The notes beneath the pieces are model-generated. The model made no database searches, was not told the DNA's origin, and saw nothing but the letters and a program-made list of their open reading frames with translations. The position numbers were made by a program, and so were the translations under genes. Source: a bacterium (GTDB lineage: Bacteria > UBA8248). Taken from it: a stretch of DNA of 64,000 nucleotides. Location: positions 1,530,212-1,594,211 of the forward strand of contig OZ241875.1 in assembly GCA_965203325.1 (NCBI GenBank), in the 5' to 3' direction. Below are positions 9,925 to 61,896 of this stretch, piece by piece (the stretch's first letter is position 1; each line of letters opens with the position of its first letter).

Positions 9925-11915
<1,991 letters not shown>

Positions 11916-15933: not shown

Positions 15934-16347
15934 CTACTCCCCCGCCCGGTCTCCCCTCGCCTTCTTCGCCCTCATCAGAAACGCGCCCAGGGCGGGCAGG
16001 AGCGCGATGGCGCCCACCATGTTGACGAGGAACATGAACGAGAGCACCGTGCCCATGTCGGCCTGGAGCTTGAGCGGCGCGAATATCCAAGTCGCCACCC
16101 CCACCGCCAGAGTGAGGCCGGTGAGCACCACGCCCGCCCCCATGGTGGCGAGGGTGCGTTCGTAGGCGGCGGCGAAATCGAGTCCCTCCCTCATATAGGC
16201 GAGAAGCCGCCCGCAGATGTATATCCCGTAATCCACGCCGATGCCGACCCCCAGGGCCACCACGGGAAGCGTCGAGACCTTGAGGCCGATCTCCAGAAAC
16301 GCCATCAGGGCGCAGGCCAGGGTGGTGAATTTCTTTCCGGCTTGCAT
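15934..16347 (-). pseudogene. orphan 3'-terminal fragment (137 codons) of the RND/MMPL transporter gene
   Basis: About 95% identical to the last ~130 codons of the full gene at 17685..20033. Part of an ~0.8-kb segmental duplication. Confidence 0.7.
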
Positions 16348-17684: not shown

Positions 17685-20033
17685 CTACTCCCCCGCCCGC
17701 TCTCCCCTCGCCTTCTTCGCCCTCATCAGAAACGCGCCCAGGGCGGGCAGGAGCGCGATGGCGCCGACCATGTTGACGAGGAACATGAACGAGAGCACCG
17801 TGCCCATGTCGGCCTGGAGTTTGAGGGGCGCGAATATCCAGGTCGCCACCCCCACCGCCAGAGTGAGGCCGGTGAGCACCACGCCCGCCCCCGTGGTGGC
17901 GAGCGTCCGCTCATAAGCCGCCGCGAAATCGAGACCCTCTCTCATATAGGCGAGTAGCCGCCCGCAGATGTATATCCCGTAATCCACGCCGATGCCGACG
18001 CCTAAGGCCACGACGGGAAGCGTCGAGACCTTGAGGCCGATCTCCAGAAACGCCATGAGGGCGTAGGCGAGGAGCGAGACGAGCGCGAGGGGCGCGATGA
18101 TGCAGACGGTCGCCGCCAACGAGCGGAAAGACAGCAGGCAGAGCAGGATGACCGCGGCGTAGACGTAGCCCAAGATCGGGAACTGCGACGCCTCTATCTC
18201 CTCGTTCGTCGCCGCCATCACCCCGACGTTCCCCGAGGCGAGGCGAAAGGTGGTGCGTTCATCGCGCTCCGCCAGGCTGAAGGCCTTGACGGCCGAGACG
18301 ACCCGGCGGATGGTCTCCGCCTTGTGGTCGGCGGTGTAGATGCGCACCGGCATCGCCGAGCAGTCGCCGTTCAGGAGCCCCGTGCTCGTCGGCACGAGGG
18401 AGACCGACTCGGCGAGCGCGTGGCGGTTGCGCGGCAGCGCGCGCCACTTGAGGCTGCCCTCGTTCCAGCCCGCGTTCAGCTTGCGGACGATGCCGGGGAG
18501 CGCGACCACCGAGCGCACGCCCTCCACGTTCCGCATGCGCCACTCGAACTCGTCGATGAGGCGCATCACGCGGTAATCGACGCACCCCTGGGGTATGGTC
18601 TCGACGATCACGGTCAACACGTCCACGCCGATGTTGAAGCGCTCGACGATGGCGGCGGTATCGCGGTTGTAGGTGGAAGTCGCGCGCAACTCCGGCACGC
18701 CCTGGTGCTGGTCGCCCACGCGGACCTCGGGCGCATAGCGCGCGCCGAGAGCGAGCAGGACGGCGGCGACGGCTATCGTCGCGATGGCGGGGCGCGGCCT
18801 GGCCGCCCGCGCGGCGCGCTTCCAGAGACCCGCCAAGAGTCCCGGTGAGGCCGCGCGCCCCCCGCCCTCCCCCGGCTTGAGGAAGGAAAGCGCCACCGGC
18901 AGTAATCCTAAGTTCGTCAGGATGATCGCGGCCACGCCCAGGCTGGCGGTGACGGCGATCTCTTGGATGACGCGCACGGGGATGAGCGCGATGGCCACGA
19001 AGCCGATGGCGTCCGAGGCCAGCGCCACCGAACCCGGCAGCAGCAGGCGGCGGAAACTCGCCCGCGCGGCGCGGACGCCGCCGCCCCCTTCGGCCCCCAC
19101 CGCGTTCACCATCTGCACCCCGTGGCTCACCCCGATGGCGAAGACCAGAAACGGCACCAGGATCGACATCGGGTCGACGCCGAAACCCAGGCCCGTGAGC
19201 GCGCCGAGCTGCCAGACGACCGCGACGAGCGAGCACGCCAGGGGCATCGCCGTGAGGCGGACCGAGCGGGTGTAGGCGTACACGAAAAGGGCGGTGATCA
19301 CGACGGCGAGGCCGAAGAACAGGAGCACCTGCGCCGCGCCGTCCGCTATCTCTCCCACGACCTTGGCGAACCCGATGATGTGGACGTTCGCGACGCCGCC
19401 GGCTTCTGCGTCGCGGCGGATGACCTCGAGCGCGCGCGCGACTTCGAGATAATCGAGCCGCTCCCCGGTGTCCGGGTGGAACTCCTGGAGCCTCGCGCTC
19501 ACGAGCGCGCCCGAGAAGTCGTTCGCCACCAGCCGTCCCACGATGCCCGCCTTGATGATGTTCTCGCGCACTCGCGCGAGGCCGGCCCTGGTGGGCTTGA
19601 AGTCCGCGGGCAGCACGTTGCCCGCGACGATGCCGTCCTCGACCACCTCGTTGTAGCGCACGTTCGGCGTGACCACCGAATAGACCTGGGTGCGGTCGAC
19701 GCCCGGCAGGAAGAATACGGCGTCGTTCACCTTCTGGAGCAGGGCGAAGAACTCCGGGCTGAAGATGTCGCCCTTCCGCGCGACGAGCGCCACCGCCACG
19801 CGGTCCGCGCCCCCGAAAGCGGCGCGGTGCTTGAGGAAGGTGCGCATGTACTCGTGTTCGAGCGGAATCAGCTTGGTGAAGCCCGCGTCGACGCGCAGCC
19901 CCGACGCCAGCCAGGCCATCGCCAGCGTGACCAGGAGGAACGCCGCGAGCACCCGCTTGCGGCGCGAGAACAGCGCGCGCTCGAGCCAAGCCGTCACCGA
20001 GGATGTCTTGGGAGAAGCGGAGGCGTCCGGCAT
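17685..20033 (-). CDS. RND superfamily / MMPL-type exporter (HpnN-like)
   Basis: 12-TM RND topology with two large periplasmic loops. Start taken at MPDASASPK (ATG 20033); the ORF-track start 20102 is GTG and would overlap the upstream gene. Confidence 0.8.
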   Translation of the reverse strand: MPDASASPKTSSVTAWLERALFSRRKRVLAAFLLVTLAMAWLASGLRVDAGFTKLIPLEHEYMRTFLKHRAAFGGADRVAVALVARKGDIFSPEFFALLQKVNDAVFFLPGVDRTQVYSVVTPNVRYNEVVEDGIVAGNVLPADFKPTRAGLARVRENIIKAGIVGRLVANDFSGALVSARLQEFHPDTGERLDYLEVARALEVIRRDAEAGGVANVHIIGFAKVVGEIADGAAQVLLFFGLAVVITALFVYAYTRSVRLTAMPLACSLVAVVWQLGALTGLGFGVDPMSILVPFLVFAIGVSHGVQMVNAVGAEGGGGVRAARASFRRLLLPGSVALASDAIGFVAIALIPVRVIQEIAVTASLGVAAIILTNLGLLPVALSFLKPGEGGGRAASPGLLAGLWKRAARAARPRPAIATIAVAAVLLALGARYAPEVRVGDQHQGVPELRATSTYNRDTAAIVERFNIGVDVLTVIVETIPQGCVDYRVMRLIDEFEWRMRNVEGVRSVVALPGIVRKLNAGWNEGSLKWRALPRNRHALAESVSLVPTSTGLLNGDCSAMPVRIYTADHKAETIRRVVSAVKAFSLAERDERTTFRLASGNVGVMAATNEEIEASQFPILGYVYAAVILLCLLSFRSLAATVCIIAPLALVSLLAYALMAFLEIGLKVSTLPVVALGVGIGVDYGIYICGRLLAYMREGLDFAAAYERTLATTGAGVVLTGLTLAVGVATWIFAPLKLQADMGTVLSFMFLVNMVGAIALLPALGAFLMRAKKARGERAGE

Positions 20034-31669: not shown

Positions 31670-32788
31670 TTACGCCGCGGTACGCTCTCGCTCGATCATC
31701 TCCTTGATTCGGGGAATCAGGTCGCGCGCGGCGCGGTGGCATTCCTCCACGTGGGGGTAGCCCGAGAGGATGAACTCATCGATGCCCAATCGCCAGTAGC
31801 CGAGAAGCTCCTCCGCAATTTGCTGGGGCGTTCCCACGAGCGCGGAGCCGCAGTTCACCCGCACCTGGGAGATGCCGTTCCAAAGATGCGGCCCGACCCG
31901 GAAATCCTCGAACGCGCGCGCCTGTGCGGCGGCGCCGACCATGCTCGTGCCGGCCACCAGCGCGCCGCGCTGCGCCTTCACGGTATCCTCCGCGCGGCTG
32001 AGCAACTCGCGCGTCTCATCCCAGGCATCTTCTTCAGTGTCGCGCATTACCAAGTGGGAGCGCACGCCGAAGACGGGCGTCCGCCCCGCCTCGGCGAAAG
32101 AGGCCCGTGCGCGCTCAAGGTGCTTTCGGGTCTCCTCCACCGGCCCTATCCAACCGAGGTAAACGTCCGACTGCGTTCCCGCGAGCTTGAGTGCGGCGGG
32201 CGATGCGCCGCCGAGATAGAACTGGGGCGTCTCTCCCGCCGGGCCGGGCGAGCAGTGCACATCGCTCAGCTTCACGAACTTCCCGTCGAAGCTGACGGGC
32301 TCGGGTTTTTCCCATAGCTTGCGGATGGCGGCTATGAACTCCTCCGCGCGTTCGTAGCGCGTATCGTGGTCGATCCGCTCGCCCATCTTCTCGAACTCGC
32401 CCTTGATGCCGCCGGGCACGACGTTCAGGTCCACGCGCCCGCCCGTAATCTGGCTGAGCGTGGCCGCCATCTGCGCGAACAGGCCGGGGTTCACGAAGCC
32501 GGGGCGCACGGCGATGAGAAAACGTATCTTCTCGCTCCGCGCGGCCAGCGCCGTCACCATCGTCCAGGTCTCCGCCAGGGGGGCGCCCTGGTCGAAAAGC
32601 CCGTTGGCAAAGCGCGTGGGGATGAGCATGGAGTAGAAGCCGTTCTCCTCCGCCGCCTTCACCACCTCGCTCAGGTATTCAAACGTGGGCGGACGCTCGG
32701 CCCGCAGCGTGCCGATGTGCGCGCCGTCACCGTCGATCGGAATGAACCAGTCGAAGCGCGGCGCCGGACGTTCGTGATTGTTGGCCAT
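31670..32788 (-). CDS. LLM-class flavin/F420-dependent oxidoreductase (SsuD-like)
   Basis: MANNHERPAPRFDWFIPIDGDG... N-terminal region of the luciferase-like monooxygenase family. Confidence 0.8.
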   Translation of the reverse strand: MANNHERPAPRFDWFIPIDGDGAHIGTLRAERPPTFEYLSEVVKAAEENGFYSMLIPTRFANGLFDQGAPLAETWTMVTALAARSEKIRFLIAVRPGFVNPGLFAQMAATLSQITGGRVDLNVVPGGIKGEFEKMGERIDHDTRYERAEEFIAAIRKLWEKPEPVSFDGKFVKLSDVHCSPGPAGETPQFYLGGASPAALKLAGTQSDVYLGWIGPVEETRKHLERARASFAEAGRTPVFGVRSHLVMRDTEEDAWDETRELLSRAEDTVKAQRGALVAGTSMVGAAAQARAFEDFRVGPHLWNGISQVRVNCGSALVGTPQQIAEELLGYWRLGIDEFILSGYPHVEECHRAARDLIPRIKEMIERERTAA

Positions 32789-33578: not shown

Positions 33579-34211
33579 TCAAGCCAGCGTTTCGCCGAGC
33601 GCCGCCAGTTCATCGAGCGCATCCCTGGCGAAGGAACTCTGGAAGACGGCCTCCGCTGCAGCCCCCGGATAGACGGCCCACAGCGCGTCCTTATCGCAGA
33701 ACAAGATGGTGGTGAGAGGCCGCAAAACGATCGCGCCTACAGTTTCGTGCACGTCGGGCCGGTTGATCCACCTGCGGAACGAGGCTTCGCAGTCCGCCGC
33801 AAGTGTGAGTTCTGAATCCCAGAGCGGATCGCCCGAATAGAAGTTCTGAAGATTCGGGCCGGCGAATTCATTCTCAAGATATGCGCGCTCAAGCGGCTGG
33901 AGGCTTTCCGCTTTCTTGTGGATTCTGAACGAATGAGACGCCGCGCAGGCGACGCCTATCCGCATCGTGGCGGGGCTTTGGCGAGATTGCGCGCGATACT
34001 CGAACCACACGCTCTTGCCCGAATAGCGGCCCCGCAAATGGCCGCCTTCGAGATGCGACGTTCCCGCATCCAGAATTTCTGCCAGCGGCTTCATCCGGCG
34101 GGCGAGCCACACGTCGCGGAAGAAGACGTAATAGACGACTGCGCCGAGAACCACCGCCAGGGCGAGGAGGCTCGGTCCGTCCAAATGCACTCCAAAAAGC
34201 GACAAACCCAT
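33579..34211 (-). CDS. hypothetical protein with one N-terminal TM helix
   Basis: ORF with hydrophobic N-terminus LLALAVVLGAVVYYVFF. No recognisable family. Lies downstream, same strand, of the NTPase gene. Confidence 0.45.
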   Translation of the reverse strand: MGLSLFGVHLDGPSLLALAVVLGAVVYYVFFRDVWLARRMKPLAEILDAGTSHLEGGHLRGRYSGKSVWFEYRAQSRQSPATMRIGVACAASHSFRIHKKAESLQPLERAYLENEFAGPNLQNFYSGDPLWDSELTLAADCEASFRRWINRPDVHETVGAIVLRPLTTILFCDKDALWAVYPGAAAEAVFQSSFARDALDELAALGETLA

Positions 34212-34336
34212 AGGCTCAAAACCTTTTGGTGAACCATCTCACAAGTCTACAAACCATCTTTGAGAATCCTACGCTCCGCGAGTCTGGATTCCGGCTTTCG
34301 CCGGAATGACGATGAGAAAAACATTCCCGCAAGAGT

Positions 34337-36685
34337 CTATTCAGCATCACTAAACCTTACTTTTCCTCCGCTAGATTCAACAGCTTCGATTATGATCTTC
34401 CGTATCTCGGACAGAAACTTTCTTGACAGCGGGGGCATCACAGCTTCGGGAAGCGGTGCCGTCTCGTCATAGATATTGCGGATATCACGGGTTCGCAGGC
34501 GTGTGGAACCCCTGCCGCGACGATCATAGGCAGTCCGCCAATCTTCAAGATGTTCTTTGATCAAACGTCGATGAGCCAAACCATCTATAGCCCCGGATAC
34601 TCTTTCCCGCACACTTTCGATCGCCGCTTGCCTCTCTCTTTCATCCCCCTCATTCTTGAGTTCACGAGTCCAACTGGTCGGCTGGTCCAGAAACCGCGAA
34701 ATGGATTCAGTCAATCGATCACTCAGATCCGCAACGGGACGAAGTTCAACATATTCGACGTTGAGTTCGTCCGCGATGCGTCGATTGAGAGCTTTGATAC
34801 TAGCCCAGTGTGCCTTATTTGTTCCTTCGTAACTGCCGAACCCAAGTATAGCCAGCCAACGATTCTGAAATTTCTCAACCGCTTCTCTCACAGCAAGAGC
34901 AATGCCGTCTGTGTCGTAGACAGGACAGGCTTCGGACAATGGCGTTGGTGAGATAGCTTGCTCACAGAATTGGGTCAGTCTCTTCATTTCTTCTTGCACG
35001 AAATTGTTTGCCGCTGGAGGTAACTTGGAAAGTTTCTTATCGACGCCGCCGAGTATGAAACATCGGCCGTCAATTTCCTGTTCCATGCTTCTGGCGACTG
35101 GTTCACTTAGAATGTCCATGTCCCTCAAGCTGGATAGAGCATTCCGGACTGAATCCATAACATGGTTCCGCTTGTCGCTGAATGTTCGAAGATTTTGCCC
35201 CTTTATCTGATCAAAGTGAGTAAAAGCGATTGCGGTTTTGCTGTTGTGGCCACGAGTGGCAACAGCGCGGAGCACTGAAAGAGGAGCAGCCTGCATCGGC
35301 TGCTGAGCATTGTCTACGAGGAGAATGACGTCTGCTTGGTTAAACCGCTCGGTGATATGAGTGGGGACACTAGAGGAAGAATCCGCCGTATGCCCCAAGC
35401 CTTGTCCGTCTATGAGTACTAGTTTTGGTGTATCGTTGGAAAAGTCTGGAAACAAAGGCCCTTTAACGCGAATCCCCTCTACGAGGGGTGTCAACAATCG
35501 ACCAAAATCCCGCCAAAAATTGCTGGAGAACCAGCGGATATTGCGAATGAATTCATCCCGGTCTTCTGTGTTGAACAACCAAAATATGGGCCACCCCTCC
35601 GAGGAATGCCGACATATCTCTCCCGCTTTCAAAAGGTCGAACCGCGCCCGGAGCGCATCCAACACATTATGGACAAGCGCATAATAATGATCGTCATTGC
35701 TGATGTAGGTGTCGAGTTCTTCTTCGATTAACTGCTTCGCTGCATCACGGTCGGGGTTAGCAGGATTATCGAAATCAACGCCGAGGTCGGCTGATAATCG
35801 TTCGCGGGCTCTCTTTGTCAACTGCAAGATCTGATCGATGAACCCTTCAAGAACGTCCCGGTTTTCGGCTCTTTCACCATCCGTGAGACCCGTTTCTTCA
35901 TTAGTGTTTGGGCTCACGCTCACATCTTCCTCATAATCGAAAGAAAACTCATCTTCTTCACTGTGCTGTTCAGTGGCCTCTCGCCATCCCCCGAGAACAT
36001 AGCTGAGACGGAATTTTTGGTCGCGATGATTCAGGAAGCGTTCGGCTATTTTGTCTCTGAGAGCACCTTCGTACGCAGCAAGACAGGCATCAATGATGCA
36101 TTCTTCTACGTTCGCTTGAACCTGAAACTCGGTAAAGAATGTAACGACAGCCTCAAAACTGCCCTCTGCCTGCACGACTTCGATGTCGGCAATCGTAGTC
36201 TTGTTAGGGGCTGTTGACGGGAACCGGTCATTATCGGGGTCCGATCCGATAAGTTGCCTTAGCAGCGAAGTCTTTCCGGCCCCGGTCGTCCCAACGAATA
36301 AAACGCGTGAATAGCCATCTTCCTTTCTAGGAAGTGGGATGTGGACTTCTCGCAGGTCTCCCGGCTTGGATCGCCCGGCTTGGATCGCATCATAGAATGC
36401 GTTGACAATGACCTTTGAGAAGCGTTGCTCCGCTTCGGGACGTTTGGTGCTGTTCCACCAGGATCGGTCAGAAAGAATCGTATTCATTTCAGCAACTAGA
36501 CTATCCGCCTCGATTTCGTTTTCCGTCCCCAGACCACGACGCATTTTGAGACCCGTCTTCCCTTTGGCGTCCTTTCGGAGGGGATGACGAAAGCTGATTG
36601 ACCATCCTGGACGATTCGTGCGTGATTTCGAGGCGGTATAGGTTCGGTCAGGCGCGTCATTGTTTTTTGCCACTTTTCTCACCAT
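34337..36685 (-). CDS. large P-loop NTPase of unknown family (782 aa); candidate defence-island protein
   Basis: Walker A VLFVGTTGAGKTSLLRQLIG, DxxG-like KLVLIDGQGLGH and TxxD-like AFTHFDQIKG motifs. AGGAGG RBS. Visibly lower GC than the flanks. Confidence 0.7.
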   Translation of the reverse strand: MVRKVAKNNDAPDRTYTASKSRTNRPGWSISFRHPLRKDAKGKTGLKMRRGLGTENEIEADSLVAEMNTILSDRSWWNSTKRPEAEQRFSKVIVNAFYDAIQAGRSKPGDLREVHIPLPRKEDGYSRVLFVGTTGAGKTSLLRQLIGSDPDNDRFPSTAPNKTTIADIEVVQAEGSFEAVVTFFTEFQVQANVEECIIDACLAAYEGALRDKIAERFLNHRDQKFRLSYVLGGWREATEQHSEEDEFSFDYEEDVSVSPNTNEETGLTDGERAENRDVLEGFIDQILQLTKRARERLSADLGVDFDNPANPDRDAAKQLIEEELDTYISNDDHYYALVHNVLDALRARFDLLKAGEICRHSSEGWPIFWLFNTEDRDEFIRNIRWFSSNFWRDFGRLLTPLVEGIRVKGPLFPDFSNDTPKLVLIDGQGLGHTADSSSSVPTHITERFNQADVILLVDNAQQPMQAAPLSVLRAVATRGHNSKTAIAFTHFDQIKGQNLRTFSDKRNHVMDSVRNALSSLRDMDILSEPVARSMEQEIDGRCFILGGVDKKLSKLPPAANNFVQEEMKRLTQFCEQAISPTPLSEACPVYDTDGIALAVREAVEKFQNRWLAILGFGSYEGTNKAHWASIKALNRRIADELNVEYVELRPVADLSDRLTESISRFLDQPTSWTRELKNEGDERERQAAIESVRERVSGAIDGLAHRRLIKEHLEDWRTAYDRRGRGSTRLRTRDIRNIYDETAPLPEAVMPPLSRKFLSEIRKIIIEAVESSGGKVRFSDAE

Positions 36686-36741
36686 TCAATCCTCCTAATG
36701 AATGTATCCCGAAACAACAATGCGTTGTTCCTTGTTGTGGC

Positions 36742-36770
36742 AATATATGACGAACGCAGGATTTTGTCAA
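36742..36770 (-). promoter_or_regulatory. near-consensus sigma70 promoter of the NTPase gene
   Basis: Minus strand TTGACA-N17-TATATT. The 5'UTR contains the inverted repeat AACAACgcattGTTGTT. Confidence 0.45.
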
Positions 36771-36866
36771 GAATTTTAGTACAACTCGGAACAACATTTT
36801 TAGAATAAATTAAAGAGTAAGTTCATCTCACCAAAAAACAACCCCACCAACCATCCGTGTATGACT

Positions 36867-37370
36867 CTATGAAAGACCCTCCTGCGCATCCCGCCAGGCG
36901 GGGCGGCTGCCGGGGAACATGTCCGAATCGTGGAACACCTCGATGCGGTTGCCGTCGGGGTCCAGGAAATATATGCCTTCGTGTCCGCCCCAGAGGCCGT
37001 TGCTCGCATCGAGGCGCAAGGGGCCCCAGACGACCTCGATGTCGGGGCGCGAGCGGATGTAGGCCACCGCGTCGTCGAACGCTTGCTGGTCGGCCACCTC
37101 GAACGCGAGGTGGTGCAGGCCTACGTCGCGGCGCGGCACGGTGTCCTCGCCTTCTTCTTCCACCCAGTCTTCGGGCACGCTGAATATCGCCAGTTGGTGG
37201 TGGTAGTCATCCAGATACATGAACGCCGAGCCGAACGGCGCCGCCGGGTGGCTGCCCGCCTCGTGGCGCGAGCGCAGCTTGAAGCCCAGGACTTCGGAAT
37301 AGAACTTGATGGCGCGATCCAGATCGCGCACCTTGATGCCCATGTGCTGCAGGCGGATGGAGCGAATCAT
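36867..37370 (-). CDS. VOC family protein (glyoxalase / extradiol dioxygenase fold)
   Basis: Paired beta-alpha-beta-beta-beta modules, HHLAFEV motif. RBS GGGAGG. Confidence 0.8.
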   Translation of the reverse strand: MIRSIRLQHMGIKVRDLDRAIKFYSEVLGFKLRSRHEAGSHPAAPFGSAFMYLDDYHHQLAIFSVPEDWVEEEGEDTVPRRDVGLHHLAFEVADQQAFDDAVAYIRSRPDIEVVWGPLRLDASNGLWGGHEGIYFLDPDGNRIEVFHDSDMFPGSRPAWRDAQEGLS

Positions 37371-41846: not shown

Positions 41847-41908
41847 AACGGGGCTGCTGAAAAAGCCCCCGTCGGTCGGTTTGATTTCCCCCTCACCGGT
41901 ATGAAAAG

Positions 41909-42023
41909 CACCCCCCCCCTACCCCCCCTTGTCAGGGGGGCAAGAAAAAGCAAAACCCCCTCGGCCCGGCGGGGGCGCATCGCCTTTTTATACCCCCCTG
42001 ACAAGGGGGGTAGGGGGGGGTGG
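41909..42023. repeat. dual-arm GC-homopolymer palindromic element (inverted orientation)
   Basis: CACCCCCCCCCTACCCCCCCTTGTCAGGGGGG ... TACCCCCCTGACAAGGGGGGTAGGGGGGGG with a central CCCCC/GGGGG hairpin. Confidence 0.75.
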
Positions 42024-42139: not shown

Positions 42140-42640
42140 TCAGGAAAATTCCTCTTTCAGGATTTCGTGGATGAACCGCTGGACGGCGAGGGGGTAGAAC
42201 CGGATGTCCGGCGTTCGGACGACGGCGGTGTCCGTGGTCTCCAGGCGCGCGAGTTCGTTCAGCACCTTTTCCACCAGAACCTCCGGGCTCCACTCGTGGT
42301 GGGTGATCTTCAGGTGCTCGTTCTCGATGTTGAAGTTGCCCGCCGCAACGGCGGGGAACGCGAACACGCGGCCGATGAGGTCGGAATCCATCATCTCGGA
42401 ATCCTCGAAAATCTCGCCGAACGTCTTCTGCGCCTCGGCGGGCGTCCACACCAGCTTGGGAGACACCAGCAGCTTGCCGGATATCTGGACCGAACCCGCC
42501 TGCTCTTCCACCTCCGGCCCCAGCACCCGGTAGCCGAGTTCGTGATAGCCCGAGACGATGCCCACGTAAGGCCGCTGGAGGATGCGTATCTCCTCGCTCA
42601 CCTGCCTGTGGAAATCGCGCTGCATGTCGTCGTCGAACAT
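42140..42640 (-). CDS. hypothetical protein
   Basis: ORF with RBS GGAGA. No family recognised by eye. Confidence 0.45.
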   Translation of the reverse strand: MFDDDMQRDFHRQVSEEIRILQRPYVGIVSGYHELGYRVLGPEVEEQAGSVQISGKLLVSPKLVWTPAEAQKTFGEIFEDSEMMDSDLIGRVFAFPAVAAGNFNIENEHLKITHHEWSPEVLVEKVLNELARLETTDTAVVRTPDIRFYPLAVQRFIHEILKEEFS

Positions 42641-42765
42641 CGAAACGTCTCCGTCAGGACCGAAAACCAAAAAAACGCAAGCAGGTGTTGATACCAAATG
42701 CCGCCGCGCCGGGTCAAACAAAACGAGACCACGGACGCGCCCCGTCTCTATTCTCTTCTTTTTCC

Positions 42766-44201
42766 TCAGGAATTGATAGCCCGCAAATCGCCTAAAATCT
42801 TCTCCGCCGCATCACCCGCAGATTTCACGCAATCGGGAATCCCGACGCCCCGGTAGGCGTTGCCGGCGAGAGCGAGACCCGGCGTTGCGCTCAGTCCATC
42901 CTCTATTCTGCCCACTTTCTCCAGGTGGCCCACCAGATAATGCGGCAGGGATTCCTCGTAGCGATAAAAGACTTTTCCTTCGGGTTCTCCCGAAATCCCC
43001 AGAATCGGGCGAAGCTCCTCGATCAGCTTGCGAGTCAACTCCTCATCCGTGAGCCCGGCCCGGGAGGCGGCCTCGCCTCCGGCGAAGGCGCGGATGAGCA
43101 CCTTGCCCTCGGGCGCTCTGCCCGCGAACTTGGTGCTCGAAAACGAACACGCGAGGAGCGTCTTGTTCTCTATCGCCGGTACGACGAAACCCATGGCGTG
43201 GAGCGGATTCGCCACCTGCTCGGCCCGGTAGACGAGGTTGAGCGTCGCCAGAGAGCCGCTCGGGATGCTCATCAACTCTGCCGAAATACCGGGCGCGGCT
43301 TTCTCCAGCATCCGCGCCGCAGCACTTGGCGGCAGGGTGACGCAGACTGCATCGGCATCTATCTCCTCTCCGTCCTCAAGACGAACGCGCCAGCTTTTTC
43401 GTTTCTTTCGAGTGATTCCGCCCGGCATCCCGTCCGAACCATAGCGCCTGAAATCTTCTCCGCCAGCGCGTCCGCCAGGGCGTCCATTCCACGCTCGAAA
43501 CTCACGAACAGGCCGTACCTCGGCCCGCTCGCCGAGACGCCCTCGCCAGTTCCTCGCTTTTGCATCCGCTTCCTGAGTCCCAGGATGAGGCTCCTGTGCT
43601 CTCGCTCTATCTCGTGAAACTGCGGCATGGTGGCTTTCAGGCTCAAATGTTCGGGGTCTGCCGAATAGATGCCCGCCACCATGGGCTGCGCCATTCTTTC
43701 CAACGCCTCGCGCCCGAAGCGCCTGCGCACGAAATCGGCCAGGGATTCATCCGCATCCCCACGCCTTCCGGGCAGGAGTACGTCCATCGCCATCCGGAGC
43801 TTGCCGAGCGGGCTGAAGACGGGACTCATCAAGAACGGACCGATTTGGTATGGCGCGAGAAGGTAATATCCCTGGGGCACGGGGAGCAGTTCGTCGCCCC
43901 GCAGGACGAAGCTGCGGCGATGGCGCTCGTTCGTGCCGATGAGTTGACTTCCGAGCCCCAGTTCCTCGCAGAGTTCGACGCCTTCGGGCTTAGATGCGAG
44001 AAAGCAGTCCGGGCCTTTTTCCATCAGGACACCGTCTGAGAACTCGGTCTCGATGACGCCGCCGAGCCGGGAAGACGCCTCGATGAGATGAATATCCAGA
44101 GAGAGATTCTGCGCCTTCGAGGCCTCAAGGAGCCGGTAACAGGCCACAAGCCCCGTAACGCCTCCGCCAAGCACGACCACCCGCCGGGTTTTTGCGGTCA
44201 A
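42766..44201 (-). pseudogene. hemY: protoporphyrinogen/coproporphyrinogen oxidase (HemY/CgoX family), interrupted by a 1-nt frameshift
   Basis: N-terminal FAD half (VVVLGGGVTGL...) in ORF 43359..44201. C-terminal half in ORF 42766..43428, one frame over. The junction lies in a T5 run at 43396-43400 (plus). Adding one A on the coding strand gives ...SLERNEKSWRVRLEDGEEIDADAV.... TTG start overlaps the hemH stop. Confidence 0.7.
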
Positions 44202-45160
44202 CTTCCGCTCTCCGCCATCTTCGCGCGCACCAACTCGGAGAGCATCCCGATAAAGGCGGGGTGCGTGCCCACCGTGGGCGCACGGTAGAAGCGAAGCCCC
44301 GCCGCTTCGGCCGCTTCGCGCGCCTCGATGTCCAAGTCGAAGAGCACCTCCACGTGATCGCATATGAAACCGACCGGGACCACCAGGACGGCCTTTGCGC
44401 CACCGGCGGCGACGCTTCCGATCACCTCCGTCACGTCCGGGCCGAGCCAGGTGCCGGGAGGAACGTCCGGGCTGCTCTGAAAGCCGACCTCGTAGCTCTC
44501 AAGACCCAGTTTTTGCGCCGCGAGAGCCGCCGTTTCCCGGAATTCCTCCTCATAAGAAGAGGCCTTGGCCATGGAAACGGGTATGGAGTGGGCCGTAAAG
44601 ATGACTCTCGCCACATCCGGGCCGTCCTCTTCGGGGAGGGCCTGCCTCATCCGATCGACGACGGCGTCGATGAAGCCCGGATGCTCGTGCCAGGGTTTTT
44701 CGAGAAATTCGACTTCGGGCGCATCTTCGCCCAACTCCTCGCGCGCTGTGGCGACGGCGCCCCGATAAGCCTCCCAGCTTATTTTCGTGCGATGAGGGGC
44801 CAATATGACGCCCAGCGCGCGCCTGAGTCCGCGCCCCCCCATCTCGGCCAGCGTCTCTTCCACGTAAGGCGTCCAGAAGCGATGGCCGGTATAGACGGGA
44901 ACGCCCGCACCCGCTTGTTCGAGCGCCATCTCGAGCGCGCCCGCCTGTTTCTGGGAGAAAAACGTGAAGGGCGATACGCCGCCGAAGTATTCATAGTGCG
45001 CGGCCACCTCCCGGATGCGCTCGGGGCCGCCCGACCTCTGGCCCACGATGCCCTCCACGTAGCAATACGCCTCGCCCGGACATTCCTCGTAGCGGCGGCA
45101 GCAGCCCCGCGTGGGGCCGCCGAAGCCGATCATGATGATGGAATCGAACTTGTCCTTCAT
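44198..45160 (-). CDS. hemH: ferrochelatase
   Basis: MKDKFDSIIMIGFGGP... ferrochelatase signature. ATG overlaps the hemE stop (ATGA). RBS GGAGG. Confidence 0.9.
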   Translation of the reverse strand: MKDKFDSIIMIGFGGPTRGCCRRYEECPGEAYCYVEGIVGQRSGGPERIREVAAHYEYFGGVSPFTFFSQKQAGALEMALEQAGAGVPVYTGHRFWTPYVEETLAEMGGRGLRRALGVILAPHRTKISWEAYRGAVATAREELGEDAPEVEFLEKPWHEHPGFIDAVVDRMRQALPEEDGPDVARVIFTAHSIPVSMAKASSYEEEFRETAALAAQKLGLESYEVGFQSSPDVPPGTWLGPDVTEVIGSVAAGGAKAVLVVPVGFICDHVEVLFDLDIEAREAAEAAGLRFYRAPTVGTHPAFIGMLSELVRAKMAESGS

Positions 45161-46221
45161 TCGGCCTCCGCTTCCCATTCCTGAACGAACCCGATGAGTC
45201 TCTTGACGTTCTCGACCGGCGTGCCCGGCAATATCCCGTGTCCCAGGTTGAATATGTGGCCCGGACGCGCAGCCCCCTGCCGCAGGACATCCTCCGTTCG
45301 CTCATAGATACGCTCAGGCGCCGCGAACAGGACGCACGGGTCGAGGTTCCCTTGAACGCCCATATCGCCCAGCCGCTCCCTGGCGTCGGCCAGTTCCACG
45401 CGGAAATCCACCCCCGCCACGTCGCCGCCCGCCCCTGCGAACGCTTCCAGATAGGGCGCGGTTCCCGTGCCGAAGTGGATGACGGGCGCGCCCTTTTCGA
45501 TTCCCGCGATCAGCGCGCGGCTGTGCGGCAGGACGAACTCCCGGAAATCAGCGGGCGAGAGGCAACCCACCCAGCTGTCGAAAATCTGCACCGCCTGCGC
45601 GCCCGCGCGTATCTGTTCGTTCAGGTAGATGGTCAACCCGCGCACGAGCTTTTCCATCAGCGCGTGCCACGCGCCCGAATCGGCGTACATGAACCTCTTG
45701 GTGTTCTCGAAATTGCGCGAGCCGCCGCCTTCGATCATATAAGACGCGAGCGTGAAGGGCGCGCCGCAGAAGCCGATGAGCGGAAGGGCGGGGTTCATCT
45801 GCTCCCTGGTTTTCCGGACCGCATCGAAGACAAAGCCAAGGCTCTCGCGCGGCTCCGCCTCCCGCAGGCGCTCCACGTCCGAAGCCTCCCGGACCGGGTT
45901 GTGGAGAACGGGGCCTCCCTCCGGGTATTCCAGGTCCATGCCCATGGGTTGCAAGATGAGCAGAATGTCCGAGAACAGGATGGCTGCGTCCGCCCCGATG
46001 GCGTCGAGCGCCGTTACGGCGACCTCGGCGGCCAGATCGGGCGTGCGGCAAAGCTCGATGAAGGAGACCTTCTCGCGAACGGCGCGGTACTCGCGCATGT
46101 ACCTGCCCGCCTGACGCATGAGCCAGACGGGCGTCCTCGCGTTGGGAAGCCCCCGGCAGGCGCGCATGAAGGCGGAATCCGCATACGCGGGCGCGTTTTC
46201 CACTGCTGGATGCGCCGACAT
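45157..46221 (-). CDS. hemE: uroporphyrinogen decarboxylase
   Basis: PVWLMRQAGRYMREY signature. Start at MSAHP with RBS AAGGAGGGG. Confidence 0.9.
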   Translation of the reverse strand: MSAHPAVENAPAYADSAFMRACRGLPNARTPVWLMRQAGRYMREYRAVREKVSFIELCRTPDLAAEVAVTALDAIGADAAILFSDILLILQPMGMDLEYPEGGPVLHNPVREASDVERLREAEPRESLGFVFDAVRKTREQMNPALPLIGFCGAPFTLASYMIEGGGSRNFENTKRFMYADSGAWHALMEKLVRGLTIYLNEQIRAGAQAVQIFDSWVGCLSPADFREFVLPHSRALIAGIEKGAPVIHFGTGTAPYLEAFAGAGGDVAGVDFRVELADARERLGDMGVQGNLDPCVLFAAPERIYERTEDVLRQGAARPGHIFNLGHGILPGTPVENVKRLIGFVQEWEAEAE

Positions 46222-47149: not shown

Positions 47150-47423
47150 CCACAAGCAGGGCGGACGCACGGATCCGCCTCTGATAAAACATTGCGTTTT
47201 CGTTTCTCCGTAGGGGCGCTTCGCGAAGCGCCCAACCCCTCCGACAAGGGGCTGTTGAAATAGTCCTCTTCAGTTGGTATTCACCACCGTCGTCATTCCG
47301 GCAATCAATGCCGACTGAGGAGGGAGGGATTGCCCGGAATCCATTTTCAAGCAGAATGACAATACGCCGGCTTTTCATCTCCCCGTCATTGGCGGGAACC
47401 AATCAGAAAATAAAATACAAAAC

Positions 47424-47538
47424 CAACCCCCCCCTACCCCCCCTTGTCAGGGGGGTATGAAAAGGCGACGGCCGCCACCGGTAGAGGGGCATTTGTTTTT
47501 TCTTGCCCCCCTGACAAGGGGGGGTAGGGGGGGTTGCC
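47424..47538. repeat. dual-arm GC-homopolymer palindromic element
   Basis: ACCCCCCCCCTACCCCCCCTTGTCAGGGGGG ... CCCCCCTGACAAGGGGGGGTAGGGGGGGTTGCC. Downstream module with TTTTTCAACAA to ~47590. Confidence 0.75.
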
Positions 47539-47591
47539 TTTATCCCCTGAGGAGGGGGACTTTTTCAACAACTCCCCTCAGTCGGGACTGA

Positions 47592-51643: not shown

Positions 51644-51907
51644 CTTTCCCCCGCCTGAAAAATTTCATCCCTCACGATGCGCAAAATCGCGAGCCGTCAA
51701 ACGCATTCACCATGCGAAGGATCATCATACCCGATTTTTGTTGTGGTTTTATTACACGGACCGTCAAAAACCGGGTTGAATCGCCCTTCGCCTGTTTCAA
51801 GGCTTTTGCGGCGCCCGGCTCCGCTTCACCTTTTCCCCGGATAAGCTGTAGAATCGCCGCGTCCACCGGGAGGTCGAAACGTCGAATCCACGCCGAAGGA
51901 GAGCGCC

Positions 51908-53077
51908 TTGAAGATCATCGATATCCGCGAGACGGTGGTTCCCATTCAATCGGACCTGAGAAACGCGTTCATCGATTTTTCCCTGATGACGGTGAGCGTC
52001 GCCGCCCTCGTCACGGACGTGGTGCGCGACGGGAGGCGCGTCGTCGGCTTCGGCTTCAACTCGAACGGACGCTACGCCCAGCAGGGGCTTTTGCGCGAGC
52101 GCTTCATCCCCAGGCTCAGAGAAGCGGCGCCCGAGTCGCTGCTGAACGAGGCGGAATCGAACTTCGAGCCCGCCAGAATCTGGGACTGCATGATGAAGAA
52201 CGAAAAGCCCGGCGGGCACGGCGACCGCTCCGTCGCCGTGGGCATCATCGACATGGCGGTCTGGGACATGGTGGCCAAAATCGAGGAAAAACCGCTCTAC
52301 CGCCATCTGGCGGATACCTATCGCGACGGAGAGTGCGATGAGAAGGTATCCGTCTACGCCGCAGGCGGCTATTACTATCCGGGCAAGGACCTGAAAGCCC
52401 TCCAGAACGAGATGCGAAGCTATCTCGATCGCGGCTACACCACGGTGAAAATGAAGATAGGCGGCGAATCGCTCGACGACGATATCCGGAGAATCGAGGC
52501 GGTGCTCGAGGTCGTGGGCGAGGGCCGGAACCTGGCGGTGGACGCCAACGGGAAATTCGATCTCGAAACCGCCGTCGCCTACGCGGAGGCGCTGGCGCCC
52601 TACAATCTGCATTGGTACGAGGAGGCGGGCGACCCGCTCGATTACGCGCTTCAGGCCGAACTCGCCAAACACTACGACAACCCCATGGCGACGGGCGAGA
52701 ACCTCTTCTCCACCCAGGATGCGAGAAACCTGATCCGCTACGGGGGGATGCGGCCGGGCGTGGACATCCTGCAGTTCGACTGCGCTTTGAGCTACGGCCT
52801 GGTGGAATACCTTAGAACGCTCGATATGGCGGAGGAACACGGCTGGTCGTCCCGCTCGTTCATCCCCCACGGCGGACACCAGCTCTCGCTCAACATCGCG
52901 GGCGGGCTGGGCCTGGGAGGCAGCGAGTCCTACCCCGACGTGTTCAAGCCCTTCAACGGCTTCGCCGACTCCGTGGCGGTGGAAGACGGCTACGTCGGCT
53001 TTCCCGACCTGCCGGGCCTCGGCATCGAGGACAAGGCGGCTCTCAAGGACGTGCTGAGGGAGTTGTCTGAAACTTGA
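51908..53077 (+). CDS. enolase superfamily protein (mandelate racemase/muconate lactonizing enzyme family)
   Basis: KMKIGG, LAVDANGKFD, ATGENLF metal-ligand motifs. TTG start with RBS GAAGGAGAG. Confidence 0.8.
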   Translation: MKIIDIRETVVPIQSDLRNAFIDFSLMTVSVAALVTDVVRDGRRVVGFGFNSNGRYAQQGLLRERFIPRLREAAPESLLNEAESNFEPARIWDCMMKNEKPGGHGDRSVAVGIIDMAVWDMVAKIEEKPLYRHLADTYRDGECDEKVSVYAAGGYYYPGKDLKALQNEMRSYLDRGYTTVKMKIGGESLDDDIRRIEAVLEVVGEGRNLAVDANGKFDLETAVAYAEALAPYNLHWYEEAGDPLDYALQAELAKHYDNPMATGENLFSTQDARNLIRYGGMRPGVDILQFDCALSYGLVEYLRTLDMAEEHGWSSRSFIPHGGHQLSLNIAGGLGLGGSESYPDVFKPFNGFADSVAVEDGYVGFPDLPGLGIEDKAALKDVLRELSET

Positions 53078-53094
53078 ACCCGGGCATCACCTCT

Positions 53095-54399
53095 TCACGA
53101 CACACGAAGCGCGACGCGGTGCATCGTGTTGTTGAGGTATCCCCTCGGGTTCCAGTCGATGGCGTGGGGCTGCATCACCCCCGCGCTGTCCGTCGCCCGC
53201 GCCCAGATCTCGTAGTACCCGGCTTCGGGCAGCCTTACGTCGGCGCGGAAGTTCTGCCAGGCGCCGTCGTTCACGGGGGCGTCCAGCGCAGCCGGCCTCC
53301 AGGTCGCGCCGAAGTCATGGGAGAGGTCGACCGCCGCGACCGTCCGGTCTCCCGACCAGGCATGGCCGCGCACCTCTACGGCGCGCCCCGCCGCCGCTCC
53401 GTTCGCGGGGTGGGTGATCAGCGATTTGACGGGCATCCGCTCGATGATGACGAAATCTTTCTCCTCGACCTTCTCGCCCGGCTCGATCCTGTATCGCGGC
53501 ACGCGGTAGGAGGCGCCGGTCATCTTGGGGCCGTCGTGCACGACGTCGCGGAGGTAGATGCGCCGCAGCCATTTCTGCGAGCACGACCCCGGCCAGCCGG
53601 GGACGACGAGCCGCAGCGGCGCCCCGTTCATCGAATGAATGGGGCCGCCGTTCTGGCCGAAGGCGATGAGCACGCCCTCCGTCATCGCCTTGGCGACCGG
53701 CACGCCGCGCGAGATGGGCAGCCTGCCCGGCTCACCGGAGAGGTCCCCGTCTGCGCCGACGTGGGCGGTGTAGACGACGCCGGGCCGCACGCCGGCCGCC
53801 AAGAGCACGTCCTTGAGCCGTACCCCCGTCCACTGCGAACAGGCGACCGCCCCGTGGGTCCACTGGGTTCCTTTCACCGGCGGTTTGAAGAAGGCCCGCC
53901 CGTTGCCCCCGCATTCGATGACGAGGGCCTTCGTGACGACTTCGAACTTCGAGCGGAGCTCGGCGATCGACAAGGTCATGGGGCGCTCCACGAGGCCATC
54001 GACGGTGAGGGTCCAGGCGTCCGCCGACGCTTCAGCGGGCGGAACGCCGTTGTTCCGAATGAAGTGGCGCGAAGTCGGGGTGATCGGGTCGTCGAGCAGA
54101 TGCGGCGGAGTCTCGGCGTTCATCGGCCGCTCGTTCAGCAGCGTCAGGCCGTCCTTCCCGACCAGCACGCTCTCGTCAGCGAAAGCCGCCGGAATGAACC
54201 CCGCCGGCATGTTGCGGTGAAAGGGGATCGCCGCGCCCACCATCGCCGCCATGGCGGCAAGCCCTGCGCCGCGCAGAAAACCGCGCCGGTCGAGATACGA
54301 CTTTCGCCCGAAGAAGGCATAATCCGCCGCCACCGGGTCCTCGGCGAAGAATTCGTGCATATCCGGGTTTTCAGAGGATGCGTATTCCTCTTTCGGCAT
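53095..54399 (-). CDS. sulfite-oxidase-family molybdopterin oxidoreductase, Tat-exported
   Basis: Tat motif DRRGFLRGAGLAAMAAM. Moco-binding core and dimerisation domain. RBS AGGAGG. Confidence 0.8.
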   Translation of the reverse strand: MPKEEYASSENPDMHEFFAEDPVAADYAFFGRKSYLDRRGFLRGAGLAAMAAMVGAAIPFHRNMPAGFIPAAFADESVLVGKDGLTLLNERPMNAETPPHLLDDPITPTSRHFIRNNGVPPAEASADAWTLTVDGLVERPMTLSIAELRSKFEVVTKALVIECGGNGRAFFKPPVKGTQWTHGAVACSQWTGVRLKDVLLAAGVRPGVVYTAHVGADGDLSGEPGRLPISRGVPVAKAMTEGVLIAFGQNGGPIHSMNGAPLRLVVPGWPGSCSQKWLRRIYLRDVVHDGPKMTGASYRVPRYRIEPGEKVEEKDFVIIERMPVKSLITHPANGAAAGRAVEVRGHAWSGDRTVAAVDLSHDFGATWRPAALDAPVNDGAWQNFRADVRLPEAGYYEIWARATDSAGVMQPHAIDWNPRGYLNNTMHRVALRVS

Positions 54400-54447
54400 G
54401 GCGTCCTCCTCTCGCGGACAACCGCTCAGAGAAAATCGCACTGAATT

Positions 54448-55452
54448 CTAGACGAACGCGGGCATCACCTCTTCGGCGAAGCGCTCGAGCGTCCTCAGGA
54501 CGAGTTCCTGCGGCATCCCCGGCCACTGGACGCGGAACGCCATGTGGTCGACGCCCAGTTCGTCGCGGTGGCGTGCGATGTCCTCGGCCACGTCCTCCGC
54601 CGAGCCGATGAGGAACCTGTCGGAGCGAAGCTCGTCGAGCGGCATCCGTAGCGTGTCGCTGCTCGGCAGCGCCTCGCTCTGGCCCCACTTCACGTAGACG
54701 TCGTATTTCACCGCCAGATAATCCGCGCATTCGCGAAAGGCGCTCTCCCTGTCCTCGCCGATGAACATCTCCTTGATCACTGGCATCGCATCGGGCGCGC
54801 CTTTTCCTGCAGCTTCGCGCTCTTCGTGGAACATCTCCATCTGGCGCTTCAAGGTGTCGAAGCGCGCATGGGGGTTCAGGAACCAGGCCTCTCCCATCCT
54901 GGCCGCGCGCTTCACCGCGCCGTCGCCGTTCGCCGCTATCCAGATGGGCGGTCTGGGCCGTTGGATGGGCCGCATGGTGAGATTTACGTCTTCGAGTTGG
55001 ACGACCTCGCCTTCATAATCGAGCGTCCCCTCTTCGAGCAGGCGGGTGACGGCTTCGAGTTTCTCTTCGAACGCCTTCACGCGCCAGGGTTTCGTGAGGC
55101 CGAACGCGCGGTATTCGGGCTCGCGGTAGCCCAGCCCCACGCCGAGGACGAAGCGGCCCTTCGTCATGGCGTCGAGCGTGGCGACCTGTTCGGCCACGTC
55201 CACCGGGTTGTGGAGCGCGAGCAGGAGGATGCCCGTGCCGACGGTCATATCGCCCGCGTGGGCCGCCACCTGGGCGACGCTCGGCCAGGTCTGCATCATC
55301 CACACGCCCTCGGTGAGGTAGTGCTGGCCGCACCACACGCTGTGAAATCCCAGGTCTCTAATGAGGCGTACCTGCGCGAGATGCTCCTCCCAGCGCTCTG
55401 CAGGGTCGTCCCCCAGGGCGTGCTGGTTCATGACGAACATGCCGAATTTCAT
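54448..55452 (-). CDS. LLM-class flavin/F420-dependent oxidoreductase
   Basis: MKFGMFVM... luciferase-like TIM barrel. Confidence 0.8.
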   Translation of the reverse strand: MKFGMFVMNQHALGDDPAERWEEHLAQVRLIRDLGFHSVWCGQHYLTEGVWMMQTWPSVAQVAAHAGDMTVGTGILLLALHNPVDVAEQVATLDAMTKGRFVLGVGLGYREPEYRAFGLTKPWRVKAFEEKLEAVTRLLEEGTLDYEGEVVQLEDVNLTMRPIQRPRPPIWIAANGDGAVKRAARMGEAWFLNPHARFDTLKRQMEMFHEEREAAGKGAPDAMPVIKEMFIGEDRESAFRECADYLAVKYDVYVKWGQSEALPSSDTLRMPLDELRSDRFLIGSAEDVAEDIARHRDELGVDHMAFRVQWPGMPQELVLRTLERFAEEVMPAFV

Positions 55453-55476
55453 ATCATCCTCGCTCGTGTTTACGAA

Positions 55477-56382
55477 TCAATCCTTGGTTCCGAAAGCATC
55501 GGCCAGGGCGATGACTTTCTCCGCCGCCTCGACCACCGGATAGTCGATCATGCGCCCGCCGACGGAGACGCTCGCCTCCCCGCGCGCCGTCGCCTCCTCG
55601 AATGCCACCACCACCTCGCGCGCCTTTTCGACCTCCTCCTGCGTCGGCGTGAACGCGTGGTTCACGATTTCCACCTGCCTGGGGTGGATGCAGAACTTGC
55701 CGAACATGCCGAGCGCGCGGCATCTGTCCGCGCTGGCGGCGAGTCCCTCCTGATCGTCCAGGGCAATCCACACCGTGTCGAGCGGCTTTTCAAGGCCCGC
55801 GGAGCGCGAGGCCACCGCGATGCGTGAGCGTGGGTAGTCGAAGGTGAACTCATCGCGCGGCCACTCGACGTCCAGATCGTTGGTGTAATCCCCCGCCCCG
55901 AAGGCGAGCTGGAATCGCCGCTCCCCCGTATCGGCGGAGGCGATGGCGAAGGCGTCCTCCACGCCCCGGGCGTTCTCGAGGATGGCGAGCAGGTGCACGC
56001 TCCCCGCTTCACAGCCCGCCTCTCTCTCCGCGTCGCGAAGCAGCCTGTCCGCCGCGAGTATCTGCCCGGCGTTCTCCGCCTTGGGCAGCACGATTCCCCG
56101 GAGCGCCGGCCCCACGACGGCCGCGATGTCCTCTGGCCCGCAGGCGATCGAAAAACCCGTCACGTCGTCCAGAGGATTCACGCGCACGAAAACGTCCGCC
56201 CCGTCTTCTTCGGCTATCGTCTTGACCGCCGCACCGAGCGCATTCCGCGTCGATTTCTTCTCATCGGCGGGCACGGCGTCTTCCAGGTCCAGAACGACGG
56301 CGTCGGCCCCGGCCTTGCCCACCTTCGCGAGCATTCTCTCCCTGTTACCGGGAGCGAACAGAATCGTCCGGTAGAGTTTCAT
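55477..56382 (-). CDS. HpcH/HpaI aldolase / citrate lyase beta (CitE)-like lyase
   Basis: ILFAPGNR...VVLDLEDAV CitE signature. RBS AAGGAG. The upstream 260 codons of the track ORF are antisense to the amidase gene. Confidence 0.75.
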   Translation of the reverse strand: MKLYRTILFAPGNRERMLAKVGKAGADAVVLDLEDAVPADEKKSTRNALGAAVKTIAEEDGADVFVRVNPLDDVTGFSIACGPEDIAAVVGPALRGIVLPKAENAGQILAADRLLRDAEREAGCEAGSVHLLAILENARGVEDAFAIASADTGERRFQLAFGAGDYTNDLDVEWPRDEFTFDYPRSRIAVASRSAGLEKPLDTVWIALDDQEGLAASADRCRALGMFGKFCIHPRQVEIVNHAFTPTQEEVEKAREVVVAFEEATARGEASVSVGGRMIDYPVVEAAEKVIALADAFGTKD

Positions 56383-56578
56383 GAAAATCTCCTTCTCGTT
56401 CATCGTCTCAGGTGATGTGCTTTTACCCTTGATGGCGGCTCTTGCCAAGCGATAGAGACCGCCCCGGCACACTATGGGCGTCCGCCGCGCTTCGGGACGA
56501 ACGCCCGCTTTCGTTTCGGCTCCCCTGCTACCTGGAATATAATCGCGCCAAAAATAACCCCATTTACGGAGCCTCCCC

Positions 56579-58255: not shown

Positions 58256-58276
58256 GAAAACCATTGTTAAAGGAGC

Positions 58277-58392
58277 AACCCCCCCTACCCCCCCTTGTCA
58301 GGGGGGTATAAAAAGGCGATGCACCTCCACCGGGCTGAGGGAGGTTTGCTTTTTCTTGCCCCCCTGACAAGGGGGGGTAGGGGGGGTTGCCT
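58277..58392. repeat. dual-arm GC-homopolymer palindromic element
   Basis: AACCCCCCCTACCCCCCCTTGTCAGGGGGG ... CCCCCCTGACAAGGGGGGGTAGGGGGGGTTGCC. Central CCTCC/GGAGG hairpin. Downstream module to ~58435. Confidence 0.75.
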
Positions 58393-58440
58393 TAATCCCC
58401 TCAGGAGAAGGACTTTTTCAACAACCCCCTCAAGAAAGAC

Positions 58441-59565: not shown

Positions 59566-59715
59566 CGAATCCGTCTCCTCGAAATAATGGCTGTACGCTT
59601 AAGAAAAATCGGCGTGAGCCTCTCTGGATGTTGTGATGAACGCCACTTTAGCGTATCTCTGATTCGCGCCACAACGAACGCAGTGGAAGCGAACCCCGAA
59701 TCTTTTGAGGAGCCC

Positions 59716-60579: not shown

Positions 60580-60612
60580 TATCTACATAAGAAAAGGAGC
60601 CAGAGAGATTCC

Positions 60613-61803: not shown

Positions 61804-61896
61804 CGTTCATGAGGAGCCAAGCCTTGTCAGACGCGGCCCTCGCCGATAGGATGCGGGAGAAATCGCGGACTTGACTCGAAAATACGGAGAAACGTC

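Follow-up and report, generated by a model that had tools for sequence, protein, structure and literature searches.

In Bacillus subtilis, a Firmicute, the haem-biosynthesis genes hemE, hemH and hemY are adjacent and lie in that order (Hansson and Hederstedt 1992, as cited in PMC4231631). The same three genes, likewise adjacent and in the same order, are found in a genome of the phylum Nitrospinota, within the stretch of DNA analysed here (hereafter the window, 64 kb in length). Unlike the B. subtilis system, the Nitrospinota cluster has 4-nt overlaps between its genes, a conserved Cys-rich N-terminal insert in HemH (GCCRRYEECPGEAYCYVEG) and a 1-nt deletion in hemY. Two other kinds of described system resemble the interrupted gene. 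Homopolymer indels are a classic residual error of long-read consensus sequences, in MAGs as well as isolates, and are known to fragment gene calls (PMC9262707). The likeness is that a one-base length error would split an otherwise conserved hemY into ORFs in adjacent frames; however, the runs in hemY are short (A5 and G2), and no second such error was found in the window. Programmed -1 frameshift sites, such as those of dnaX and of the IS3 and IS1 families, consist of A_AAA_AAG heptamers or of Z_ZZN tetramers accompanied by stimulators. Here, the likeness is that a -1 shift on an A-rich, Lys-codon motif would restore the hemY protein, yet hemY offers a weak A_AAA only, which is unconserved and has no stimulators.

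The features of the cluster and of the interrupted gene are collected in Table 1. The genes overlap in an ATGA between hemE and hemH (45157-45160) and in a TTGA between hemH and hemY (44198-44201), the latter containing the TTG start codon of hemY; this is the arrangement that an earlier note on this DNA had described. The start assigned to hemE agrees with the 354-aa call in the closest relative. The number of terminator-like sites in the region does not exceed the shuffled expectation, so the hairpin found past hemY does no more than fit with a transcription unit that ends at hemY.

Table 1 The hemE-hemH-hemY cluster and the parts of the interrupted hemY gene, in window coordinates.
Feature	Coordinates	Strand	Description
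hemE (uroporphyrinogen decarboxylase), first gene of the cluster	45157..46221	minus	354 aa, ATG at 46221; TIGR01464, 407 bits
hemH (ferrochelatase, closest to coproporphyrin III ferrochelatases)	44198..45160	minus	320 aa; TIGR00109, 171 bits
hemY, N-terminal part in the native frame	43395..44201	minus	269 codons, TTG start through Lys269
Lesion site	43394..43400	minus	G-AAAAA-G on the coding strand, C-TTTTT-C on the plus strand; one base short compared with all orthologs
Out-of-frame tail past the lesion	43359..43394	minus	11 aberrant codons (AGAFVLRTERR), then premature TAG at 43359-43361
hemY, C-terminal part in the -1 frame	42766..43394	minus	209 codons and stop
Weak terminator-like hairpin just past the hemY stop	42731..42745	minus	Found by consensus scan

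As given, hemY consists of two minus-strand ORFs, 43359..44201 (with the TTG start) and 42766..43428, which lie in adjacent frames and share the stretch 43359-43428. Re-translation reproduced the positions, the frames and the overlap as they had been listed in the earlier note, and its central claim, that a single-base frameshift splits the gene, also stands, as one additional base at the GAAAAAGC site gives a protein of 478 aa. A correction applies to the plus-strand T5 run, which had been placed at 43396-43400 and is actually found at 43395-43399. The junction reads ...CTC GAA AGA AAC GAA AAA GCT GGC... on the coding strand, where the window carries the allele GAAAAAGCTGG; in short form, the deleted allele is GAAAAAGC, compared with GAAAAAGGC or GAAAAAAGC for alleles with an intact frame. 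Alignment with every close relative places a single 1-nt deletion at 43398/43399. Compared with all relatives, one nucleotide is deleted, and this lesion is present in the given sequence, in which hemY has no uninterrupted frame on one polypeptide, as the deletion is followed by the premature TAG.

When the missing base is restored, the resulting HemY (478 aa) matches TIGR00562 (proto_IX_ox) with 291 bits, the cut-off being 97.85, in one stretch from residue 5 to residue 470 (profile positions 2-465 of 470). PF01593 is matched as well, with 184 bits (residues 16-470), and the alignment of the protein to B. subtilis HemY (PDB 3i6d) crosses the junction without a gap. The GxGxxG FAD-binding motif VLGGGVTGL is located at residues 10-18 in the N-terminal part, and a conserved C-terminal FAD-binding motif, LAGNAYRGVGIPDC, is located near the C-terminus; each of them aligns with the corresponding segment of 3i6d. 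The closest relative of HemY, encoded on a 2.97-Mb MAG contig, is intact, 478 aa long and 95% identical across 100% of the length, and close homologs in the database are all single proteins of ~478 aa. Because of the profile match, the ungapped alignment to 3i6d and the 95%-identical ortholog, the two ORFs have not come together by chance but encode adjoining parts of a single HemY. The gene had been named hemY beforehand, with the proviso that alignment might reveal two halves not belonging to one HemY protein; the TIGR00562, PF01593 and 3i6d matches agree with the name, and the aligned halves proved to be contiguous.

The PDB comparisons liken both HemY and HemH to Bacillus-type enzymes. Repaired HemY scores 317 bits against 3i6d (residues 5-464), 215 bits against the M. 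xanthus PPO 2ivd and ~125 bits against human and tobacco PPOX, and the best PDB matches of HemH are CpfC 9kta (148 bits) and B. subtilis 1ak1 (147 bits), with the human enzyme at ~88 bits. The resemblance of the two proteins to Bacillus CgoX and CpfC suggests a coproporphyrin-dependent pathway, and similarity hints that the substrate of HemY may be coproporphyrinogen III (as for CgoX) rather than protoporphyrinogen IX (as for PgoX). As HemY and HemH look coproporphyrin-dependent, the relevant alternatives include CgoN/YtpQ and ChdC besides HemG and HemJ, CgoN/YtpQ being an oxygen-independent alternative enzyme (PMC10965808). Pfam and NCBIfam scans of the 64-kb window detected none of the alternative oxidases (CgoN/YtpQ, HemG and HemJ) and no ChdC/HemQ. 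If the pathway is coproporphyrin-dependent, ChdC/HemQ should be encoded elsewhere in the genome. As a by-product of the analysis, the cluster looks like a Bacillus-type, hemEHY-like (coproporphyrin-dependent) set in a diderm phylum.

The Cys-rich insert of HemH covers residues ~18-36 (window 45040-45110) and follows the pattern GCC(R/L)RY(E/N/A)ECPGEA(Y/H)CYVEG, in which four Cys are conserved across every ortholog examined. The insert precedes the part of HemH that the PDB search aligned with the B. subtilis CpfC chains, and it may form a metal or Fe-S binding site.

A scan of genome collections returned 22 orthologous hemY loci, several of them from Nitrospinota or Nitrospinaceae MAGs. All 22 are in frame at the site of the lesion, where they read GAA-NNN-GG(C/T)-TGG (Glu-x-Gly-Trp), and two of them carry exactly GAAAAAGGCTGG. 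Since a Gly codon directly precedes TGG in all 22 orthologs, loss of a G is favoured over loss of an A. The most parsimonious lesion would be loss of a G from the conserved Gly codon GGC at the A5/G boundary (GG to G), and a contraction of A6 to A5, with an inserted A as the repair, appears less likely. Repair by G gives ...NEKGWRVR... and repair by A gives ...NEKSWRVR..., and among 121 family members the invariant Trp is preceded by Arg in 72, by Gly in 33 and by Ser in only 2. Full-length HemY, if made, could be recognised by one of two junction-spanning peptides, …SLERNEKGWRVR… or …NEKSWRVR…. The earlier note had repaired the gene by inserting an A into the T5/A5 run; while the one-base repair holds, its placement in the A5 run, with Ser at the junction, is probably one base off, as the lost G of the Gly codon fits better.

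Selection on the cluster was assessed against the closest relative (L001/L026, 94.6-97% nucleotide identity). Pairwise dN/dS is 0.10 for the N-terminal half of hemY and 0.15 for the C-terminal half, values similar to those of hemE (0.12) and hemH (0.17). Apparent internal stops in some orthologs of neighbouring genes were attributed to coordinate extension across 5' indels and set aside. After the differences between the window and L001 had been polarised with ten outgroup orthologs, 16 synonymous codon changes and 5 non-synonymous ones were found to fall on the window's own branch in the N-terminal half of hemY. For the C-terminal half, which lies downstream of the lesion and would go untranslated if the frameshift were real and not bypassed, the counts are 9 and 1, the single non-synonymous change being a conservative V>I. 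Given a neutral expectation of ~3 non-synonymous changes per synonymous change, a binomial test yields P=3.7e-5 for at most 1 non-synonymous change out of 10 in the C-terminal half and P=1.6e-10 for 6 out of 31 in the whole gene. Strong purifying selection has acted on hemY right up to the tip of the branch, and the deletion is its only disabling lesion, with no additional stops or indels. An old, decaying hemY pseudogene is ruled out by the dN/dS values of 0.10-0.15 and by the branch counts, and because 9 synonymous changes stand against a single non-synonymous one downstream of the lesion, any pseudogenisation must be extremely recent. As a rough estimate, the lesion would be no older than ~4-14% of the short window-specific branch, which measures ~0.06 synonymous substitutions per site.

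The remainder of the window was inspected for similar lesions. In a codon-usage gene model, the window comprises ~51 genes, and only at hemY does the frame change within a strand without a start codon. When 48 other predicted genes were scanned with Pfam, most gave a family match, and none of these is split by a frameshift; the sole partial match is a duplicated 3' fragment of an MMPL gene, without a frameshift. Base-level alignments cover ~19.5 kb with the closest relative (window 31121-54212) and ~12 kb with a second relative (window 51825-64000), and every other indel in these ~31 kb whose length is not a multiple of three is intergenic. Across the ~31 kb aligned and the 48 genes scanned, the hemY lesion is an isolated, single frame-breaking lesion.

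With moderate confidence, the lesion is best regarded as an indel artefact of consensus or assembly rather than as a mutation in the cell. The living genome would then have a normal hemE-hemH-hemY cluster, in which the true hemY reads ...GAA AAA GGC TGG... and encodes an uninterrupted 478-aa flavoenzyme, and the base missing at the A5/G boundary (43394-43400) would reflect an indel error at a short homopolymer junction. An artefact is favoured because constraint persists to the very end of the branch, hemE, hemH and the hemY of all relatives are intact, and the lesion lies at an A5-then-G2 homopolymer junction within an otherwise intact and constrained gene. A population-consensus null allele in so constrained a gene is also unlikely a priori. 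The contig of the closest relative is named ctg61267_26.44x_l, presumably in the style of a long-read metagenome assembler, and the fact that the window contains both copies of a near-identical repeat (98% identity over a 300-nt core) hints at long-read assembly. On the other hand, the window is otherwise very clean, with no other coding indel of this type in ~31 kb and no other split gene, so that an error rate of ~1 per 30-64 kb or lower is required, with the single error falling in hemY. Moreover, if the G of GG was lost, the run is only 2 bases long, whereas errors more typically strike runs of at least 5. Two metagenome scans, with a pattern covering the deleted and the repaired alleles, gave 0 matches to an independent copy of the locus, and exact copies of the products of hemH, the C-terminal half of hemY and glgB were absent from the searchable collections.

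The earlier note had left three options side by side, namely a homopolymer sequencing error, a recent pseudogenisation and slippage-dependent expression. The list itself was the right one, but the options have become unequal: an error is favoured, pseudogenisation survives only as an extremely recent event given the 9:1 ratio of synonymous to non-synonymous changes, and slippage falls away, as discussed below. In practical terms, one indel at a homopolymer junction, as an artefact, can mimic the loss of an essential pathway step in a MAG. The hemY call needs to be repaired or flagged as frameshifted before metabolic reconstruction; otherwise, the porphyrinogen oxidase step of this genome would wrongly be scored as absent.

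A smaller share of belief goes to a deletion that is real but very recent, and fixed or at high frequency in the sampled population. HemY would then be truncated after residue 269 and followed by 11 aberrant residues; deprived of the C-terminal parts of its FAD and substrate domains, this product would be inactive. In that case, the organism would have to rely on CgoN/YtpQ, HemG or HemJ, on haem taken from outside or on wild-type cells in the same population, yet the 64-kb window encodes no alternative oxidase. The lack of other coding frame-breaking indels in the window speaks against a generally error-prone assembly, and short runs are natural sites of slippage mutation too. In addition, the window contains real gene remnants and mobile DNA (the MMPL 3' fragment, an IS110 transposase and a 2.7-kb insertion). 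Several related Nitrospinota MAGs bear isolate names that may be sponge-derived, and gene loss would be plausible if the lineage is host-associated. However, selection is not relaxed on the window branch (9 synonymous to 1 non-synonymous, P=3.7e-5), and a real deletion must be younger than roughly a tenth of that branch; hemE and hemH are intact and constrained, though they would be purposeless in a dead pathway; and hemY is intact in all 22 relatives.

It could further be speculated, and is slightly more doubtful still, that a Nitrospinota lineage has just lost its oxygen-dependent, CgoX-like HemY step while hemE and hemH are still intact, residual enzyme perhaps being supplied through background -1 slippage on A_AAA. 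If real, the loss would show haem-pathway erosion, or a replacement of HemY by CgoN, HemG or HemJ, at its very beginning, and as a very recent inactivation of haem biosynthesis it would be of modest interest for symbiont genome reduction. Readings other than an artefact or a very recent null allele are, taken together, improbable.

Among these, a real frameshift might be bypassed during expression, either by a ribosomal -1 slip of tRNA-Lys on A_AAA or by a slip of RNA polymerase on A5, such that some full-length HemY is made; the chance of this is judged to be very small. The shift needed is indeed -1: the 0-frame codons GAA AAA GCU would be followed by re-reading of A AAA and then AGC, with tRNA-Lys re-pairing perfectly on A_AAA, and the product ...NEKSWRV... 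would be full-length. While A_AA.A is among the tetramers of IS-element frameshift sites (PMC4066793), the weak A_AAA tetramer is the sole motif at this site, and the 0 frame, C_GAA_AAA_G, contains no X_XXY_YYZ heptamer, as GAA in the P site would need to re-pair on CGA. When no stimulator is present, Z_ZZ.N tetramers in E. coli showed ~0.15% frameshifting compared with a background of 0.11%, and A_AA.A was the weakest of the six tetramers that responded to a pseudoknot (PMC4066793). No downstream stimulatory structure was detected in the 101 nt from the site (MFE -32.2 kcal/mol compared with a shuffled mean of -33.5, z=+0.38), and no Shine-Dalgarno-like (GGAGG-like) element was found within 40 nt upstream of the lesion. 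Appreciable transcriptional slippage needs an A or T run of roughly 8-9 nt or more, and the A5 run of hemY is far below this threshold. As none of the 22 orthologous loci has the two-frame arrangement, and heptamer, stimulatory structure and a sufficiently long A run are all lacking, slippage-dependent expression of HemY is essentially excluded.

Least credible of all is the proposal that hemY is a long-standing, decaying pseudogene or is stably split into two functional polypeptides: two ORFs do exist, with an in-frame ATG for the second one at 43428, but this ATG is an out-of-frame reading of the conserved codons ACG GGA TGC that nearly all 22 intact orthologs share, it has no properly spaced ribosome-binding site, no relative has a split hemY, and the gene carries one lesion with dN/dS of 0.10-0.15 in both halves. 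A deliberately split functional gene starting from ATG 43428 is ruled out, as the ATG is a by-product of the conserved codons.

Several other features of the window were recorded. Downstream of hemY, at a distance of 125 nt, lies a 166-aa ORF (orf166; window 42140-42640, minus strand) that occupies the same place in 21 orthologous loci. Compared with the closest relative, this ORF has 0 non-synonymous differences, and neither Pfam nor NCBIfam gave a match for it. REP-like intergenic repeats occur at 15636-15735, 17392-17491, 41904-42021, 47419-47576 and 58270-58429, one copy lying 120 nt downstream of orf166 and beyond the hemEHY cluster. Their core consists of a hairpin, CCCCCC-TGACAA-GGGGGG(G), followed by TAGGGGGGG, with G/C homopolymers of 6-9 bases.

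A segment of ~790 bp is duplicated at 15562-16347 and 17317-18100, ~1.75 kb apart, with a 300-nt core that is 98% identical and flanks that are 78-86% identical. It comprises the 3' end of an MMPL/RND transporter gene (17685..19997, minus strand) together with downstream sequence, leaving a 137-aa MMPL fragment at 15934..16347, and the two copies flank an AbiEi-antitoxin-like gene at 16428-17033. The duplication looks like an inserted element that copied the 3' end of the gene. A segment of ~2.7 kb (window 34190-36870) is missing in the closest relative (L026) and is probably a recent insertion; it contains a 782-aa ORF (34337..36685, minus strand) with faint Pfam matches to P-loop NTPases or dynamin-like proteins and a low codon-usage score. 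An IS110-family transposase gene (PF01548 and PF02371) is located at 2299-3399 on the plus strand, and a TPP riboswitch (RF00059, 72 bits) at 9934-10024 on the plus strand lies directly upstream of thiC (10152..11915).

A possible second frameshift, in cofG (61809-61951, plus strand), was considered and rejected. None of the codons ATG, GTG and TTG precedes the CxxxCxxC motif of this gene, and the earliest canonical start, GTG 61951, lies inside the motif. In two relatives (L024 1340-1545 and L025 1470-1680), the stretch upstream differs from the window by 1-nt indels that do not keep a consistent frame, and because of such frame-inconsistent indels among the three aligned sequences it is taken to be non-coding. 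A conserved GGAG-N7-CTG at 61897 would give CofG the N-terminus (M)RTVTYSFNF..., resembling that of the homolog P0140 and of other CofG proteins, and cofG likely starts at this CTG. The CofG homologs P0121 (a cluster of 172 members) and P0127 are called as truncated 315-aa proteins that miss the first Cys, presumably owing to the same start codon.

Finally, cofG and cofH occupy 61897-64000, and three genes for luciferase-like monooxygenases are found at 12050-13120, 31670-32788 and 54448-55452. The relative L027 has, next after its cofG and cofH, genes whose Pfam domains are FrhB_FdhB, nitroreductase, CofD, CofC and F420-ligase. Taken together, these genes suggest F420-dependent metabolism in this Nitrospinota lineage.
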